Shown here one piece after another: positions 6,643 to 49,174 of a DNA stretch of 64,000 nucleotides (position 1 is its first letter; the number at the start of each line of letters is the position of its first letter). Location: NCBI RefSeq assembly GCF_003790525.1, contig NZ_CP033635.1; one strand, given 5' to 3'. The position numbers were made by a program, and so were the translations under genes. Below the pieces are notes generated by a model. The model saw only the letters and a program-made list of their open reading frames with translations, was not told where the DNA came from and made no database searches. The stretch is from Escherichia coli. GTDB lineage: Bacteria > Pseudomonadota > Gammaproteobacteria > Enterobacterales > Enterobacteriaceae.

Positions 6643-7290
6643 ATGAACTATCGTATTATTCCGGTCACCGCATTCTCCCAGAACTGTTCATTGATCTGGT
6701 GTGAACAAACCCGACTGGCCGCACTGGTCGATCCTGGCGGCGATGCGGAAAAAATCAAACAGGAAGTTGATGCCAGCGGCCTGACACTGATGCAGATCCT
6801 GCTGACTCATGGTCATCTGGACCACGTTGGCGCAGCGGCGGAACTGGCGCAACATTACGGCGTGCCGGTTTTTGGCCCGGAAAAAGAAGATGAGTTCTGG
6901 CTGCAAGGCTTGCCTGCGCAAAGTCGTATGTTTGGTCTGGAAGAGTGCCAGCCGCTGACGCCAGATCGTTGGCTGAACGAAGGCGATACCATCAGCATAG
7001 GGAATGTGACTTTACAGGTGTTACATTGCCCTGGGCATACGCCGGGTCATGTCGTGTTTTTTGATGAGCGGGCAAGGCTGCTGATTTCTGGCGACGTTAT
7101 TTTCAAAGGCGGAGTAGGGCGCAGTGACTTTCCGCGTGGCGATCATAATCAACTGATTTCTTCAATCAAAGATAAATTGCTGCCCCTGGGGGATGACGTG
7201 ACATTTATTCCGGGTCACGGACCATTATCAACTCTTGGTTACGAACGCCTGCATAATCCCTTCCTGCAAGACGAAATGCCCGTCTGGTAA
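6643..7290 (+). CDS. gloC: Metallo-beta-lactamase-fold hydrolase GloC (YcbL), glyoxalase II-type, 215 aa
   Basis: THGHLDHVG metal-binding motif (HxHxDH) typical of the MBL fold; length matches YcbL. Confidence 0.88.
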
Positions 7291-43590: not shown

Positions 43591-43610
43591 TACTGTATGA
43601 ATGTACAGTA
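43591..43610 (-). promoter_or_regulatory. LexA (SOS) box in the sulA promoter
   Basis: tactgtatgaatgtacagta: a perfect CTGT-N8-ACAG palindrome with TA-rich spacer, 23-42 bp upstream of the sulA ATG. Confidence 0.85.
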
Positions 43611-43786
43611 CATCCAGTGACAACAAAGATCAACCCTATTTTCGGAAAGAGCCTCGCAAATTTTGTCGTTGGTGACGGGAAAACATAAATTAATCTTGCC
43701 CCTTAAGAATAAGTTGCCTATTTTCGTAGTTAACGGATCCGTTAATGTGAATCATTCTTTTATGTTATGATTTTAAAAGGAATTTT

Positions 43787-44416
43787 ATGAAAAGCCTCTC
43801 CTATAAGCGGATCTATAAATCACAAGAATACCTGGCAACGTTGGGCACAATTGAATACCGATCATTGTTTGGTAGTTACAGCCTGACTGTTGACGACACG
43901 GTGTTTGCGATGGTTTCTGATGGTGAGTTGTATCTTCGGGCTTGTGAGCAAAGTGCACAGTACTGTGTAAAACATCCGCCTGTCTGGCTGACATATAAAA
44001 AGTGTGGCCGATCCGTTACCCTCAATTACTATCGAGTTGATGAAAGTCTATGGCGAAATCAACTGAAGCTGGTGCGTCTGTCGAAATATTCTCTCGATGC
44101 AGCGCTGAAAGAGAAAAGCACGCGCAATACCCGGGAAAGACTGAAAGATTTGCCCAATATGTCTTTTCATCTGGAAGCGATTCTCGGGGAGGTGGGGATT
44201 AAGGATGTACGGGCGTTACGTATACTTGGGGCAAAAATGTGTTGGTTGCGACTGCGGCAGCAAAACAGTCTGGTGACAGAAAAGATTCTGTTTATGCTTG
44301 AAGGGGCCATTATCGGCATTCATGAAGCTGCGCTCCCGGTGGCTCGCCGCCAGGAGCTTGCAGAATGGGCTGACTCTCTTACGCCGAAACAGGAGTTTCC
44401 TGCGGAACTTGAGTAA
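43787..44416 (+). CDS. sxy: Competence regulator Sxy (TfoX), 209 aa
   Basis: Matches Sxy/TfoX in length and sequence. Confidence 0.92.
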   Translation: MKSLSYKRIYKSQEYLATLGTIEYRSLFGSYSLTVDDTVFAMVSDGELYLRACEQSAQYCVKHPPVWLTYKKCGRSVTLNYYRVDESLWRNQLKLVRLSKYSLDAALKEKSTRNTRERLKDLPNMSFHLEAILGEVGIKDVRALRILGAKMCWLRLRQQNSLVTEKILFMLEGAIIGIHEAALPVARRQELAEWADSLTPKQEFPAELE

Positions 44417-46532
44417 TCTGGCGTTGCAGACGACCAATCTCTGGCAGTAATGCAATCAATAACCCAACTTGTTGTACGACCAGAGGTTCTTTGCTGTCTG
44501 CCCGTGGTTCAAGTTGCTGCATCCGCTGTTTCAGGCCAGCTAATGCCTGATTGACGCGTTCTTCATCAGCAGGTTGATGATGTAACGCGTCATCAACATA
44601 GCAAACTGCGTCATCAAGAAACGCCAGAATTTCAGGATTAGTTAACTGCTCCCGGTGAGCACCGAGGGCTGAGATATAGCTGGTAAACGTATGGTTAAGG
44701 CACAGCAACCGAAACGCGGCCTCGCGAATTTGCGGGGTAACGTTCGGCTCGCTGGACATATTTGATACCACCGACGCCAGTTCAGCATCACGGTTGTGTG
44801 CATCGCGGCGGGCAATACGATACGCCAGACGGTTATCACGCCCCTGATGGTATTGCTCCAGTATGGCATCGAGATAGCGACAGTTGGCCTCGGTGGCACG
44901 TTCGAGCATGCGCGGCAGATTGCGAAACTTCCAGTCAGGCCAGATGTAGCTCACCGCCGCCCACGCAATGGCACAACCAATCAGCGTATCGATTACGCGA
45001 GGTAACGCCACTTCAAAACCTTCACCCAGCAAGTTAAAACAAAGTAGCACCAAAAGTGTGATGAACATCGTTGCATGGGCATATTGCACGTTACGGAAGG
45101 CAAAAAAGAGCACGCCGGTAATAACCAGCAGCACCAGCTGCCCTTCCAGTGACGGCACAAACCACAGCACAGGAATGCCAATCGCGATACCTACCAGCGT
45201 ACCAATAATCCTTAATTTCAGGCGGTGGCGCGTGGCGTTATAGTTTGGCTGGCAGACAAACAAACTTGTCAGCAAGATCCAATACCCGTGATGCAGTCCG
45301 GTTATCTGAATGATGGCGTAGCCGAAGCACAACACCAGCGACATTCTTACCGCATGACGGAAGAGGGCGGATTCCGGCGTGAAGTGACGGCTAAGACGCA
45401 GCCAGATATCACTCAATCCGTGCGGGCTGTCATCAGCGAGCTCATTTTCGTCATCATTATGGGGCAGTGCCTGGGCCTGTTCTGATTCAATTGTTGCCAG
45501 TTGGGCATCAATGGCACGTAAATTGTTCAGTAAAAATCCCAGTGTTTTGAGTAAATCAGCAGGCGCGCCGTTATCGCGCATCCGCTCCAGCGCAGCATCA
45601 ATATGCGTAAAAGCGCGCTCAAAATGCGGATCATGTTGATAAGGCTGACGCAGCAAAATACAGCGTGACAGTTGCTGGCACGCCTGGCCCTGCATCGACA
45701 TCAGCCGCTGAAAACGGAACAGCACGTCGCTGTGGCGAAAATGTTCACGCAATGTTTGATACTGAATATGAGAAGAGCTGGCACGCTCGTGAATATCCTG
45801 CGCGACAAAGTAATAATGCAGTGTGCGACGCGTTCCCCGTTGACCACGATCGCCACGTAAGCGGGTCAGCAGCGAGAGTTTCGTCTGATTCAATGTCGCC
45901 ATCAGCTGACCGTTGGCGAGAGCCAAATCGTACAGCGGTGCCTGGCTTTCATCTTCAATATCAGGATCAAACATGCGCGACTTGAGCTCAAGATAACGCG
46001 CCAGTTGTTCATAGCAACGCGCCAGGTTGTCCTGCAGCGGGCGGACCGGGAACAGTAGATGACCAATAAGTGTCAGGACGTTGTACCAGACGGCACCGGC
46101 CAGCAGATACATCGGCTGCTGATACCAGTGCTCATACAGTGACGTCCCCAACATAGTGTAAATGGCGATCAGTAACGCACCGAAGGCAATTGTTGCATAG
46201 CGTTGACCCAGACCGCCGAGCAAAATGAAGCCGCTGGTTGAGAGCGTTAAGCCAATCGCAAATAGCCAGGGCCAGGGAAACAGCAGTTCTACTGAGGCCG
46301 AGGCGATAAAAAAGCAGAACAGCGTAATGATGAGGTTACGCAAACGTCCCGCCAGTCGGTCATCGAGATCGGTCAGCGCCGCTGCCACCATCCCCAGCGT
46401 CAGCGGAATCGTCAGTTTTACATCACCCAGCCACCACGGAAACGCTGTGGTTCCACAAAGCGCAATAAAAATACGCGCGTAATACAGCCAGGCGCTGTTC
46501 CAGGTATAGCGTTTGAGCAAAGGACTTAGCAT
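44379..46532 (-). CDS. yccS: Inner membrane protein YccS (FUSC/ArAE-like duplicated transporter-type protein), about 717 aa
   Basis: Two membrane-spanning modules separated by a soluble region; 3' end overlaps the convergent sxy by 38 nt; start taken at MLSPLLKRYTWNSAW. Confidence 0.88.
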   Translation of the reverse strand: MLSPLLKRYTWNSAWLYYARIFIALCGTTAFPWWLGDVKLTIPLTLGMVAAALTDLDDRLAGRLRNLIITLFCFFIASASVELLFPWPWLFAIGLTLSTSGFILLGGLGQRYATIAFGALLIAIYTMLGTSLYEHWYQQPMYLLAGAVWYNVLTLIGHLLFPVRPLQDNLARCYEQLARYLELKSRMFDPDIEDESQAPLYDLALANGQLMATLNQTKLSLLTRLRGDRGQRGTRRTLHYYFVAQDIHERASSSHIQYQTLREHFRHSDVLFRFQRLMSMQGQACQQLSRCILLRQPYQHDPHFERAFTHIDAALERMRDNGAPADLLKTLGFLLNNLRAIDAQLATIESEQAQALPHNDDENELADDSPHGLSDIWLRLSRHFTPESALFRHAVRMSLVLCFGYAIIQITGLHHGYWILLTSLFVCQPNYNATRHRLKLRIIGTLVGIAIGIPVLWFVPSLEGQLVLLVITGVLFFAFRNVQYAHATMFITLLVLLCFNLLGEGFEVALPRVIDTLIGCAIAWAAVSYIWPDWKFRNLPRMLERATEANCRYLDAILEQYHQGRDNRLAYRIARRDAHNRDAELASVVSNMSSEPNVTPQIREAAFRLLCLNHTFTSYISALGAHREQLTNPEILAFLDDAVCYVDDALHHQPADEERVNQALAGLKQRMQQLEPRADSKEPLVVQQVGLLIALLPEIGRLQRQITQVPQETPVSA

Positions 46533-46550
46533 AAAGGCCATATTAGTGGA

Positions 46551-46997
46551 TTATTCAAAACGACGACGTGCATTGGCTTCACGCGCAGCTTGCGCTGTTT
46601 CTACCGATACCACGCGACGACCGACCGGCCATAGTGCAATAGCGGCAATTTTAAAGTTCGCAATGCCGACAGGAATGCCAATGATGGAAATACATTGTGC
46701 GATGCCCGTTGCAATGTGCATCAGGCATAACCACCAGCCAAAGAAAATCAGCCAGAAAATATTCAATACCGTACCGCCAGTATTTAGCAGCACATTTTTG
46801 CCAGCCGGGTTCAGTTCATCGACATGAATAGCTTCATTGCCATAAGGCACCAGAGACAGTTTAGTGATCTCCCAGCAGGATCGTGTCAGCGGTAAGGTAA
46901 AAATCAGCACAATACTGACCAGAGTCGCCAACAGCCAGCCCAGAGTGGTGGCAAATCCGCCAAGCACAAAGTTCAGAATGTTCAAAACGGTACGCAT
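46551..46997 (-). CDS. yccF: Small inner membrane protein YccF, 148 aa
   Basis: Hydrophobic 148-aa protein; stop lies 19 bp upstream of the yccS start, so probably co-transcribed. Confidence 0.88.
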   Translation of the reverse strand: MRTVLNILNFVLGGFATTLGWLLATLVSIVLIFTLPLTRSCWEITKLSLVPYGNEAIHVDELNPAGKNVLLNTGGTVLNIFWLIFFGWWLCLMHIATGIAQCISIIGIPVGIANFKIAAIALWPVGRRVVSVETAQAAREANARRRFE

Positions 46998-47119
46998 AAA
47001 ACCTCGCTTTACTGTGGTTTTCAGTAATGGGCGGCAATTGTAACGTTTTTTTGGGCTGGAGCACGTTTTCTCTGACGGTTACACTGATAAGAAATCATTT
47101 CGTGTGGATCTACAGAGTC

Positions 47120-49174
47120 ATGGAACTGAAAGCGACAACGCTTGGAAAACGTCTGGCACAGCACCCTTACGATCGGGCGGTGATCCTCAATGCCGGGATT
47201 AAAGTCTCCGGCGATCGCCACGAATACCTTATTCCTTTTAATCAATTACTGGCGATTCACTGTAAGCGCGGTCTGGTATGGGGCGAGCTGGAATTTGTAC
47301 TGCCGGACGAAAAAGTGGTGCGTCTGCACGGCACCGAATGGGGCGAGACGCAGCGTTTTTACCATCATCTTGATACTCACTGGCGGCGGTGGAGTGGGGA
47401 GATGAGCGAAATTGCGTCTGGCGTTTTACGTCAGCAACTGGATTTGATTGCCACGCGCACCGGAGAAAATAAATGGCTGACGCGTGAGCAAACCTCTGGT
47501 GTGCAGCAACAAATCCGCCAGGCTTTGTCGGCGTTGCCGTTGCCGGTTAACCGACTGGAAGAATTCGATAACTGCCGTGAGGCGTGGCGTAAATGTCAGG
47601 CCTGGTTGAAGGACATTGAAGGCGCTCGGTTGCAGCATAATCAGGCGTATACCGAAGCCATGCTTACCGAGTATGCGGATTTTTTCCGCCAGGTCGAGTC
47701 TTCACCGCTGAATCCGGCGCAGGCCCGGGCAGTCGTTAATGGCGAGCATTCTTTGTTAGTGCTGGCTGGTGCAGGAAGCGGAAAAACGTCGGTGCTGGTG
47801 GCCCGTGCAGGCTGGTTGCTGGCACGTGGTGAAGCGTCCCCTGAGCAAATTTTATTGCTGGCGTTTGGTCGCAAAGCCGCTGAAGAGATGGACGAGCGTA
47901 TTCGCGAACGGCTACATACCGAAGACATTACCGCACGCACATTTCATGCGCTGGCGCTGCATATTATTCAGCAGGGCAGCAAAAAAGTTCCGATAGTCAG
48001 CAAACTGGAAAATGATACCGCTGCCCGTCATGAACTTTTTATTGCTGAGTGGCGCAAGCAATGCAGCGAAAAGAAAGCGCAGGCGAAGGGCTGGCGGCAA
48101 TGGCTGACGGAAGAAATGCAGTGGTCAGTGCCAGAAGGTAACTTCTGGGATGATGAAAAATTACAGCGTCGTCTTGCCTCACGCCTCGATCGTTGGGTAA
48201 GTCTGATGCGGATGCACGGTGGTGCACAGGCAGAAATGATTGCCAGTGCACCCGAAGAGATTCGCGATCTGTTCAGTAAACGTATCAAGTTGATGGCTCC
48301 GTTATTAAAAGCCTGGAAAGGTGCGCTGAAGGCAGAAAACGCTGTCGATTTTTCGGGCCTTATTCACCAGGCGATTGTGATTCTGGAGAAAGGTCGCTTT
48401 ATCAGCCCGTGGAAGCATATTCTGGTTGATGAATTTCAGGATATCTCGCCGCAGCGCGCAGCGTTGTTAGCGGCATTACGCAAGCAAAACAGTCAGACGA
48501 CGTTGTTCGCCGTTGGTGATGACTGGCAGGCGATTTATCGCTTCAGCGGTGCGCAAATGTCGCTCACCACCGCTTTCCATGAAAACTTTGGTGAAGGTGA
48601 TCGCTGCGATTTAGACACGACTTACCGTTTTAACAGTCGTATCGGTGAGGTGGCAAACCGGTTTATTCAGCAGAACCCAGGCCAGCTGAAAAAGCCGCTA
48701 AACAGCTTAACCAATGGAGACAAAAAAGCCGTCACGTTATTGGATGAGAGTCAACTTGACGCTTTGCTGGATAAGCTCTCTGGTTATGCCAAACCGGAAG
48801 AGCGCATTCTGATCCTGGCGCGTTACCATCACATGAGGCCTGCCAGCCTGGAAAAAGCGGCAACACGCTGGCCGAAGTTGCAAATCGACTTTATGACCAT
48901 TCATGCCAGCAAAGGGCAACAGGCGGATTACGTCATCATCGTTGGCTTGCAGGAGGGGAGTGATGGTTTTCCGGCTGCGGCGCGGGAGTCGATTATGGAA
49001 GAGGCGCTACTGCCACCGGTTGAGGATTTCCCGGACGCTGAAGAACGGCGGTTAATGTACGTGGCGCTGACCCGGGCACGCCATCGGGTATGGGCACTGT
49101 TTAACAAAGAGAATCCCTCTCCCTTTGTGGAAATACTGAAAAATCTGGATGTGCCGGTGGCGAGAAAACCGTAA
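47120..49174 (+). CDS. helD: DNA helicase IV, 684 aa
   Basis: UvrD-like SF1 helicase with Walker A GAGSGKTSVL; start placed at MELKATTLGKRLAQHPYDRAVILNAG. Confidence 0.93.
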   Translation: MELKATTLGKRLAQHPYDRAVILNAGIKVSGDRHEYLIPFNQLLAIHCKRGLVWGELEFVLPDEKVVRLHGTEWGETQRFYHHLDTHWRRWSGEMSEIASGVLRQQLDLIATRTGENKWLTREQTSGVQQQIRQALSALPLPVNRLEEFDNCREAWRKCQAWLKDIEGARLQHNQAYTEAMLTEYADFFRQVESSPLNPAQARAVVNGEHSLLVLAGAGSGKTSVLVARAGWLLARGEASPEQILLLAFGRKAAEEMDERIRERLHTEDITARTFHALALHIIQQGSKKVPIVSKLENDTAARHELFIAEWRKQCSEKKAQAKGWRQWLTEEMQWSVPEGNFWDDEKLQRRLASRLDRWVSLMRMHGGAQAEMIASAPEEIRDLFSKRIKLMAPLLKAWKGALKAENAVDFSGLIHQAIVILEKGRFISPWKHILVDEFQDISPQRAALLAALRKQNSQTTLFAVGDDWQAIYRFSGAQMSLTTAFHENFGEGDRCDLDTTYRFNSRIGEVANRFIQQNPGQLKKPLNSLTNGDKKAVTLLDESQLDALLDKLSGYAKPEERILILARYHHMRPASLEKAATRWPKLQIDFMTIHASKGQQADYVIIVGLQEGSDGFPAAARESIMEEALLPPVEDFPDAEERRLMYVALTRARHRVWALFNKENPSPFVEILKNLDVPVARKP

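Follow-up and report, generated by a model that had tools for sequence, protein, structure and literature searches.

Architecture of the yccF-yccS operon of Escherichia coli and its convergent junction with sxy

What do the adjoining membrane-protein genes yccF and yccS of Escherichia coli encode, do their products belong together, and does it matter that they converge on sxy, the gene of a competence regulator? We examined these questions in a stretch of 64,000 nucleotides (nt) from E. coli (contig NZ_CP033635.1, assembly GCF_003790525.1), called the window below, in which the three genes lie side by side. The account that we consider probable, taken as a whole, is that the locus is the known core operon yccF-yccS of E. 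coli, converging on sxy. Its gene layout, operon structure, and overlapping transcripts are already part of standard annotation and published transcriptomes, and there is little new in them. What is new here is a proposed ALMT-like architecture for YccS, the distribution of the yccF-yccS pairing across genomes, the drift of the yccS/sxy overlap, and a hairpin embedded in sxy; these are modest additions and not surprises.

All three are genuine genes and not a chance pattern, because 5425 of 5426 complete E. coli genomes carry the locus (coverage of at least 80%) and its synteny holds in 78 of 80 sampled Enterobacterales species. The 80 loci, all from Enterobacterales, were the best ones returned by a scan of species-representative genomes with a 13-sequence alignment, and in almost all of them yccF and yccS stand between a divergent helD and a convergent sxy that is followed by sulA. 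Positions 43600 to 47100 of the window share 100% DNA identity with E. coli SMS-3-5. RefSeq names the products in SMS-3-5 and K-12 "YccF domain-containing protein," "YccS family putative transporter," and "CRP-S regulon transcriptional coactivator Sxy," and its K-12 coordinates give a yccS/sxy overlap of 38 nt and a yccF-yccS spacer of 18 nt. The initial annotation had described a yccF of 148 amino acids (aa), a yccS of about 717 aa, a convergent sxy, and a yccS 3' end sharing the last 38 nt of sxy; the open reading frame (ORF) list, the sequence, and RefSeq agree, and the overlap is exact. Only the spacer, put at 19 nt, needs correction, to 18 nt with the K-12 start of yccS or 9 nt with the PGAP start. 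This anatomical reading of the locus is thus right, and published experiments back it. An Rfam scan at a permissive threshold added only two chance-level matches.

Strand-specific RNA-seq by Conway et al., in which this region serves as a figure example, recorded yccFS as an operon converging on sxy (PMC4161252), so the single transcript proposed from the sequence has direct published support. The arrangement agrees with this: the genes are on one strand, are separated by a short spacer, and adjoin each other in 73 of the 80 species, with a spacer of 7 to 34 nt in nearly all 73. Two in-frame ATG codons are available as the yccS start. An ATG about 17 to 21 nt past the yccF stop is the conserved start across these 73 species, whereas the ATG at +9 is restricted to Escherichia and Citrobacter; because of this difference, the 717-aa form of YccS is the better choice. 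No Shine-Dalgarno sequence is visible in the spacer ahead of yccS, and therefore translation of yccS is likely coupled to that of yccF.

YccS belongs to the YccS/YhfK family (TIGR01666/TIGR01667). It matches TIGR01666 at full length with 1259.5 bits (cutoff, 470.75), residues 11 to 709 lying on positions 1 to 705 of the 705-position profile, and Pfam finds in it FUSC-like (PF12805; E value, 1.7e-114), FUSC_2 (PF13515; E value, 7.6e-29), and FUSC (PF04632; E value, 1.2e-10) domains. The family is moderate in size (496 clusters at 50% identity with E values of 1e-30 or less), and in a plasmid collection YccS-type matches occurred only in Escherichia, Klebsiella, and Vibrio. Alignment of the N-terminal half to the C-terminal half with hhalign gave probabilities of 92 to 96% and E values of 8e-7 to 9e-10 over about 311 to 333 columns. 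Together with the Pfam domains, this bears out the earlier description of YccS as a duplicated FUSC/ArAE-like module. With FUSC domains and a duplicated unit of membrane bundle plus hydrophilic domain, YccS resembles the FUSC/ArAE proteins AaeB, MdtO, and FusC (TC 2.A.85), although its match to the MdtO profile is weak (23.8 bits; cutoff, 821). Unlike AaeAB and MdtNOP, it has no adjoining gene for a membrane-fusion or outer-membrane partner (aaeA, mdtN/mdtP), its neighbors being yccF, helD, and sxy; nor was a membrane-fusion protein gene seen beside distant YccS homologues at the loci examined.

An AlphaFold2 (AF2) model of YccS, built on 41 diverse homologues (pLDDT, 91.6; pTM, 0.90), shows a unit that occurs twice: a bundle of membrane helices, then a long helical domain in the cytoplasm. 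When this model was compared with the PDB by Foldseek, a probability of 1.0 was reached only by nine entries, all of them plant ALMT anion channels (ALMT12/QUAC1, ALMT9, and ALMT1), whose structures come from cryo-EM. Their E values ranged from 6.9e-5 to 8.7e-3 (two were below 0.001), with target TM-scores of 0.46 to 0.60 over about 380 columns, which correspond to one half of YccS. The model has the six membrane helices and the cytosolic helical domain of the ALMT fold, and a pore at the interface would be its further counterpart, which we infer. Because ALMTs are homodimers and each half of YccS aligns with one ALMT protomer, YccS may be a single-chain pseudo-dimer of two ALMT-like modules. 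Where an ALMT dimer is built from one module used twice, YccS carries two diverged modules in one chain. Its sequence identity to the ALMT proteins is 12 to 16%. The two modules could form one anion-conducting or anion-exporting pathway at their interface, and its cargo would most likely be an organic (carboxylate) anion, because the relatives of YccS are the ALMT channels and exporters of fusaric and aromatic acids. We give this proposal, an ALMT-like pseudo-dimer with one anion pathway that serves as an organic-anion channel or exporter, about an even chance of being correct.

Several observations weigh against it. The Pfam ALMT profile (PF11744) does not match YccS significantly (E value, 0.17; 11.2 bits), and sequence searches of the PDB with YccS and YccF returned nothing significant, the best YccS match being ALMT12 with an E value of 0.18. 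The ALMT sequence signal in YccS is thus weak and, because the PF11744 match is only at that level, YccS is a structural relative of the ALMT proteins and not a member of the ALMT family. A relationship between FUSC_2 and ALMT, which speaks for the proposal, has been noted before (PMC10490231). Fold similarity fixes neither the substrate nor the direction of transport, and our literature search found no transport or channel activity for YccS or any other member of the YccS/YhfK family. The regulation of ALMTs by Al3+, malate, and gamma-aminobutyric acid (GABA) has no known counterpart in YccS.

The literature search also returned no paper giving YccS, YhfK, or YccF a function. The initial annotation was accurate on this point: the names now in use are "putative transporter" and "YccF domain-containing protein," and we found no functional paper behind either of them. 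The sole phenotype found is that a yccS knockout was among those that most affected uptake of the dye diS-C3(5) (PMC6704527). As a separate observation, the E. coli paralogues YccS and YhfK, which share only about 24 to 33% identity, are each encoded directly 3' of one partner of the CRP-Sxy pair. In K-12, yhfK follows crp in the same orientation at a distance of 38 nt (locus L002, 3121-5894), and yccS converges on sxy (43787-46541 in the window).

How the operon meets sxy is the next point. The transcripts must overlap, because the coding sequences (CDSs) of yccS and sxy share 38 nt. The pair is one of 165 convergent excludons of E. coli listed with ExcludonFinder, for each of which half or more of 58 transcriptomes contain overlapping transcripts (PMC12288877). 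The antisense overlap of the two 3' ends that was proposed from the sequence is therefore borne out by published data (PMC4161252 and PMC12288877), and the junction has the overlapping transcripts of a convergent excludon.

The 38-nt overlap itself, however, is not what has been conserved. Of the 78 species with both yccS and sxy, 50 have CDS ends that overlap, by 4 to 120 nt and most commonly by 4 nt (16 species). The other 28 have a gap, which is 0 to 139 nt in 27 of them and a 2.3-kb insertion in Superficieibacter; leaving that insertion aside, 77 species fall between a 139-nt gap and a 120-nt overlap. An overlap of exactly 38 nt occurs only in E. coli; E. albertii has 41 nt, most Citrobacter species have 23 nt, and several species of the Enterobacter group have 44 nt. 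What the overlap encodes is the nonconserved C-terminal tail of each protein: the TIGR01666 match of YccS stops at residue 709 and the last block of its AF2 model has a pLDDT of 58, while conservation of Sxy ends at W194 and later alignment columns are poorly conserved. By this comparison, the conserved trait is a very tight tail-to-tail junction and not the overlap. The 38-nt overlap is most probably a by-product of a compacted junction, a pattern that fits neutral drift of the stop codons. Two loci stand apart. In Pectobacterium betavasculorum (L046, yccS stop at 7262), yccS runs about 120 nt into sxy, compared with a 15- to 16-nt gap in two other Pectobacterium species, which suggests that the usual stop codon was lost or that the sequence contains an error. 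The insertion between yccS and sxy in Superficieibacter electus (L032, 7136-9423) carries a 425-aa polytopic membrane ORF, PTS EIIC-like, and a 200-aa ORF.

The junction also holds a GC-rich hairpin, formed by RNA of the yccS sense and embedded in codons 182 to 191 of sxy (A-L-P-V-A-R-R-Q-E-L); with its flanks it takes up codons ~181 to 192. A 40-nt segment folds with -22.5 kcal/mol and so ranks within the top 0.7% of the 1278 segments on the minus strand of the window. The hairpin has the form GCTCC[C/T]GGCG-loop-CGCCGGGAGC and recurs in most Enterobacteriaceae. Its codon use, pairing, and strand bias suggest that selection acts on it as an RNA structure. In a codon-anchored alignment of 41 species, codon use in the arms was far more uniform (GCG, 0.81; CTC, 0.81; CCG, 0.78; CGC, 0.87; CAG, 1.0; GAG, 0.83) than in 73 other conserved degenerate sxy columns (0.49 ± 0.16), and the arms use the nonpreferred Leu codon CTC and Glu codon GAG. 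Across the 11 pairs of the stem, 83.8% of cells can pair, compared with 77.8 ± 0.9% in shuffles (none of 500 reached the observed value) and 38 to 50% when the partner is slid; double-sided changes numbered 28, against 12.2 ± 2.6 in shuffles. This test uses related sequences, so that its shuffle counts are not probabilities. G-U combinations (53 cells) outnumber A-C combinations (18 cells), and in 30 of the 41 sequences the yccS sense gives the more stable fold, a strand asymmetry that points to a hairpin acting in yccFS RNA.

Comparison with other lineages is in keeping with such a role. In other families, the Sxy residues are the same but the embedded hairpin is missing, and one strong palindromic hairpin stands in a short intergenic gap instead. 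In Superficieibacter, where the insertion parts yccS from sxy, the embedded hairpin has degenerated to -10 kcal/mol, and a separate 3' hairpin follows each gene. On balance, and at slightly better than even probability, we regard the embedded hairpin as the conserved feature of the junction, with the likely role of setting or protecting the yccFS mRNA 3' end.

Some results tell against this assignment. The hairpin is followed by GCAGCUUCAUGAAUGCC and so has no U tract, because of which it would not be a classical intrinsic terminator. A terminator scan found six terminator-like sites, compared with 4.5 ± 1.7 in shuffles, and none at the junction, and the Term-seq supplements of PMC7815308 have no entries for yccS, yccF, or sxy. 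The arms also encode the conserved Sxy residues A-L-P and Q-E-L, so that their conservation is partly at the protein level, and the relatedness of the sequences in the stem test limits what that test can say. If the hairpin does act on yccFS RNA, it may do so after Rho-dependent or collision-assisted termination, either as a stabilizer of the end left by Rho or as a stem-loop that positions colliding polymerases. There is precedent for the latter, in that stem-loops at convergent gene pairs position RNA polymerase collision (bioRxiv 10.1101/2022.10.23.513370). With overlapping transcripts and a GC-rich stem-loop, the yccS-sxy junction resembles convergent excludons and programmed RNA polymerase collision sites. 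It differs from bidirectional terminators between genes in that the Enterobacteriaceae hairpin lies inside the sxy CDS and lacks flanking U or A tracts.

Alternatively, the hairpin might not be an element of yccFS RNA at all but a side effect of selection on Sxy amino acids, or a structure in sxy mRNA. That the arms encode A182-L183-P184 and Q189-E190-L191 would be expected in this case, as would the position of the hairpin, which is fixed relative to sxy codons while the yccS stop lies anywhere from about 0 to 60 nt away; the plus strand, moreover, folds nearly as well (mean, -17.0 versus -18.2 kcal/mol). Amino acid selection does not, however, explain why arm codons are 0.78 to 1.0 uniform and include nonpreferred Leu and Glu codons, nor why other families hold the same amino acids without a hairpin. 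A structure in sxy mRNA would sit in a translated region, where ribosomes would unfold it, and it would not be expected to show the G-U excess and greater stability in the yccS sense or to decay where yccS is no longer adjacent. We therefore consider this explanation doubtful and retain a yccFS 3'-end element as the preferred reading of the hairpin.

As an observation in its own right, a plus-strand hairpin at 44552-44591, within yccS and 136 nt 3' of the sxy stop (-18.9 to -20.6 kcal/mol, no U tract), could mark the 3' end of sxy RNA. Its rank among window segments is no better than the top 2%, however, and at other loci hairpins of similar strength are frequent in the background. The best hairpin downstream of sxy lies at 136 to 167 nt in E. 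coli, E. albertii, and most Citrobacter loci.

With its proposed 3'-end hairpin embedded in sxy, yccFS RNA would run antisense to ~90 nt or more of the sxy 3' end. This raises the question of whether sxy and yccFS form a functional excludon, in which yccFS transcription lowers Sxy in cis and sxy transcription lowers YccS, whether through pairing of the antisense RNAs, cleavage by RNase III, or collision of polymerases; such an arrangement would tie induction of the competence regulon to expression of the membrane proteins. The published listing in at least 50% of 58 transcriptomes, a tail-to-tail junction that overlaps or lies within ~60 nt in 76 of 78 species, the predicted reach of yccFS RNA over this part of sxy, and the precedent for stem-loops that position collisions at convergent pairs are all compatible with it. 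The listing, however, reports overlapping coverage only and not reciprocal regulation, and it contains 165 such E. coli pairs; nor is the length of the overlap conserved. Furthermore, the yccF promoter was weak in the sole reporter assay found (PMC1802558), we found neither expression data with sxy-yccFS anticorrelation nor RNase data specific to the pair, and Superficieibacter keeps both genes despite their 2.3-kb separation. A functional excludon is accordingly unlikely in our judgment, and any regulatory effect of yccFS on Sxy would probably be small.

The remaining question is whether YccF and YccS are partners. YccF matches NF008739 at the equivalog level (298.3 bits; cutoff, 213) and consists of two PF03733 repeats, at residues 4 to 53 and 77 to 127, each with the motif series N-x2-W ... 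G-G ... IIGIP ... P-x-G. In alignment, these motifs are kept from Proteobacteria to Bacillota, Bacteroidota, and Actinomycetota. In both the repeats and the motifs, YccF is like the rest of the PF03733 inner-membrane family (formerly DUF307), which has no known function and no solved structure, and linkage to yccS is specific to most Enterobacterales. An AF2 model of YccF (pLDDT, 89; pTM, 0.80) found no match with an E value below 4 in a fold search and thus no solved structural relative.

One possibility is that YccF and YccS form an obligate two-component transporter, with YccF as a subunit or chaperone of YccS. The same-strand adjacency in 73 of 80 species with a spacer of mostly 7 to 34 nt, the single published transcription unit (PMC4161252), and the missing ribosome-binding site ahead of yccS, which suggests coupled translation, would all fit, and the tight spacer is compatible with a functional link within the order. 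Elsewhere the evidence runs the other way. No yccF adjoins yccS in 7 of the 80 loci (Superficieibacter, four Photorhabdus, and two Xenorhabdus species) or at the locus of a homologue with 62% identity to YccS. Beyond the scan, contexts of distant YccS and YccF homologues came from single-locus look-ups and the plasmid collection. None of the five more distant YccS homologues (30 to 49% identity) has a PF03733 or TfoX gene in its neighborhood. Conversely, YccS was found within 4 kb of YccF at none of 12 loci outside Enterobacterales (Rhizobium, three Vibrio, Aeromonas, three Enterococcus, Parabacteroides, Phocaeicola, Nonomuraea, and Eubacterium eligens), so that YccF lacks a nearby YccS in Bacillota, Bacteroidota, Actinomycetota, and Alphaproteobacteria. 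Vibrio sp. HDW18 carries both genes on one replicon, 130 kb apart, and the E. coli paralogue yhfK has no yccF-like neighbor.

Because YccF occurs in several phyla without a nearby YccS, yccS persists without yccF, and the Vibrio genes are unlinked, we judge an obligate partnership distinctly unlikely; a lineage-specific link is possible. Genome comparison indicates that yccF-yccS pairing is confined to Enterobacterales, and YccF would be a co-expressed, lineage-specific neighbor of YccS and not an obligate subunit. The functional pair implied by the initial annotation does not stand outside Enterobacterales, where distribution and placement of the two genes are independent, the very finding that the annotation itself had named as grounds for giving up the idea. 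In Vibrio sp. HDW18, yccS is divergent from helD as it is in E. coli, with no yccF between them. Judging from gene order, divergent helD and yccS are an old, conserved adjacency that predates the yccF-yccS pairing, and yccF came to stand between them within Enterobacterales.

Several neighborhoods are recorded here as side observations. The divergent helD-yccS pair has mgsA nearby in Vibrio sp. HDW18 (L104, 2165-6635) and at the loci of homologues with 39% and 62% identity (L087 and L103), all without yccF. A gene for an M23-family peptidoglycan endopeptidase adjoins yccF in Vibrio sp. HDW18 (L089, 4621-5873), where a bactofilin-like gene is next, and in Parabacteroides distasonis (L091, 2699-3997), with a 3-nt spacer. 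A YccF-M23 peptidase link was rejected as a general pattern, as it is absent in two other Vibrio loci, Aeromonas, and Phocaeicola. The Vibrio sp. HDW18 yccF also lies near a DUF2057 (csgI/yccT-like) gene (L089). On megaplasmids of Enterococcus gilvus and E. raffinosus (L090, 4001-4923; L093, 4001-4947), a YccF gene and a TfoX/Sxy-family gene of 84 aa are convergent, separated by one small ORF, and YccS is missing. This arrangement recalls the neighborhood in E. coli but is absent in Enterococcus faecium (L092); it is known from one lineage and is possibly a coincidence.

The most ambitious view, that the sxy-embedded hairpin is a programmed collision or bidirectional termination site making yccFS a cis brake on Sxy in Enterobacteriaceae and, more speculatively, that the placement of crp-yhfK and sxy/yccS ties ALMT-like channels to cAMP-CRP-Sxy signaling, for example, through efflux of cAMP, another nucleotide, or an organic anion, strikes us as highly improbable.

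The features discussed here are collected in Table 1, together with a candidate -10 element (TACAAT) of the yccFS promoter. It lies within CGTTACAAT (47037-47045, minus strand), a motif whose position upstream of yccF is strongly conserved across most Enterobacteriaceae and whose role as the -10 of the yccFS promoter is likely on that basis. A GAGG stands 5 nt ahead of the yccF ATG. A consensus promoter scan returned no promoter-like site and no full sigma-70 match here. Grainger et al. reported a chromatin immunoprecipitation (ChIP) peak for FNR at yccF/helD and found a cloned yccF promoter fragment to be weak and FNR independent (PMC1802558). We observe that the published site of that name (AGTAATTGATTGAAAGGAATAAGG, PMC1802558) maps to 47226-47250, within the helD CDS and not in the yccF-helD intergenic region. 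A near-perfect palindrome, TACTGTGGTTTTCAGTA, is located at 47010-47026, between the likely -10 and the yccF ribosome-binding site. It was considered as a LexA box (TACTG-N7-CAGTA) and rejected, as its spacer is 3 nt too short and it is found in E. coli only, being absent even in E. albertii; that yccF was not induced in an SOS data set that includes it also counts against the idea. The palindrome is probably due to chance.

Table 1. Features of the yccF-yccS operon and its junction with sxy, in window coordinates
Feature	Position	Strand	Details
yccF CDS	46551-46997	-	148 aa; ORF list, NF008739, and two Pfam YccF matches
yccF-yccS spacer	46533-46550	-	18 nt to the conserved ATG at 46532; second in-frame ATG at 46541
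yccS CDS	44379-46541	-	720 aa as the longest ORF and in PGAP; 717 aa from the ATG at 46532
yccS N module	45483-46499	-	residues ~15-353; membrane six-helix bundle plus cytoplasmic helical domain
yccS C module	44409-45371	-	residues ~391-711; membrane six-helix bundle plus cytoplasmic helical domain
yccS/sxy CDS overlap	44379-44416	both	38 nt; from coordinates
GC-rich hairpin in yccS-sense RNA, candidate yccFS 3'-end (terminator/stabilizer) element	44328-44363	-	15 nt past the yccS stop; inside sxy codons ~181-192; no U tract
sxy (tfoX family) CDS, convergent neighbor	43787-44416	+	209 aa; ORF list and RefSeq
Candidate yccFS -10 element, TACAAT	47037-47042	-	within CGTTACAAT; ~40 nt upstream of the yccF ATG

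Taken together, these results have practical consequences for work on this locus. Deleting yccS also takes away the 3' end of sxy, and recoding sxy with synonymous changes at the embedded hairpin may alter yccFS mRNA. YccF should not be presumed to be a subunit of YccS. For YccS itself, a fused ALMT-like pseudo-dimer offers a testable structural hypothesis, one that points to organic-anion conductance.

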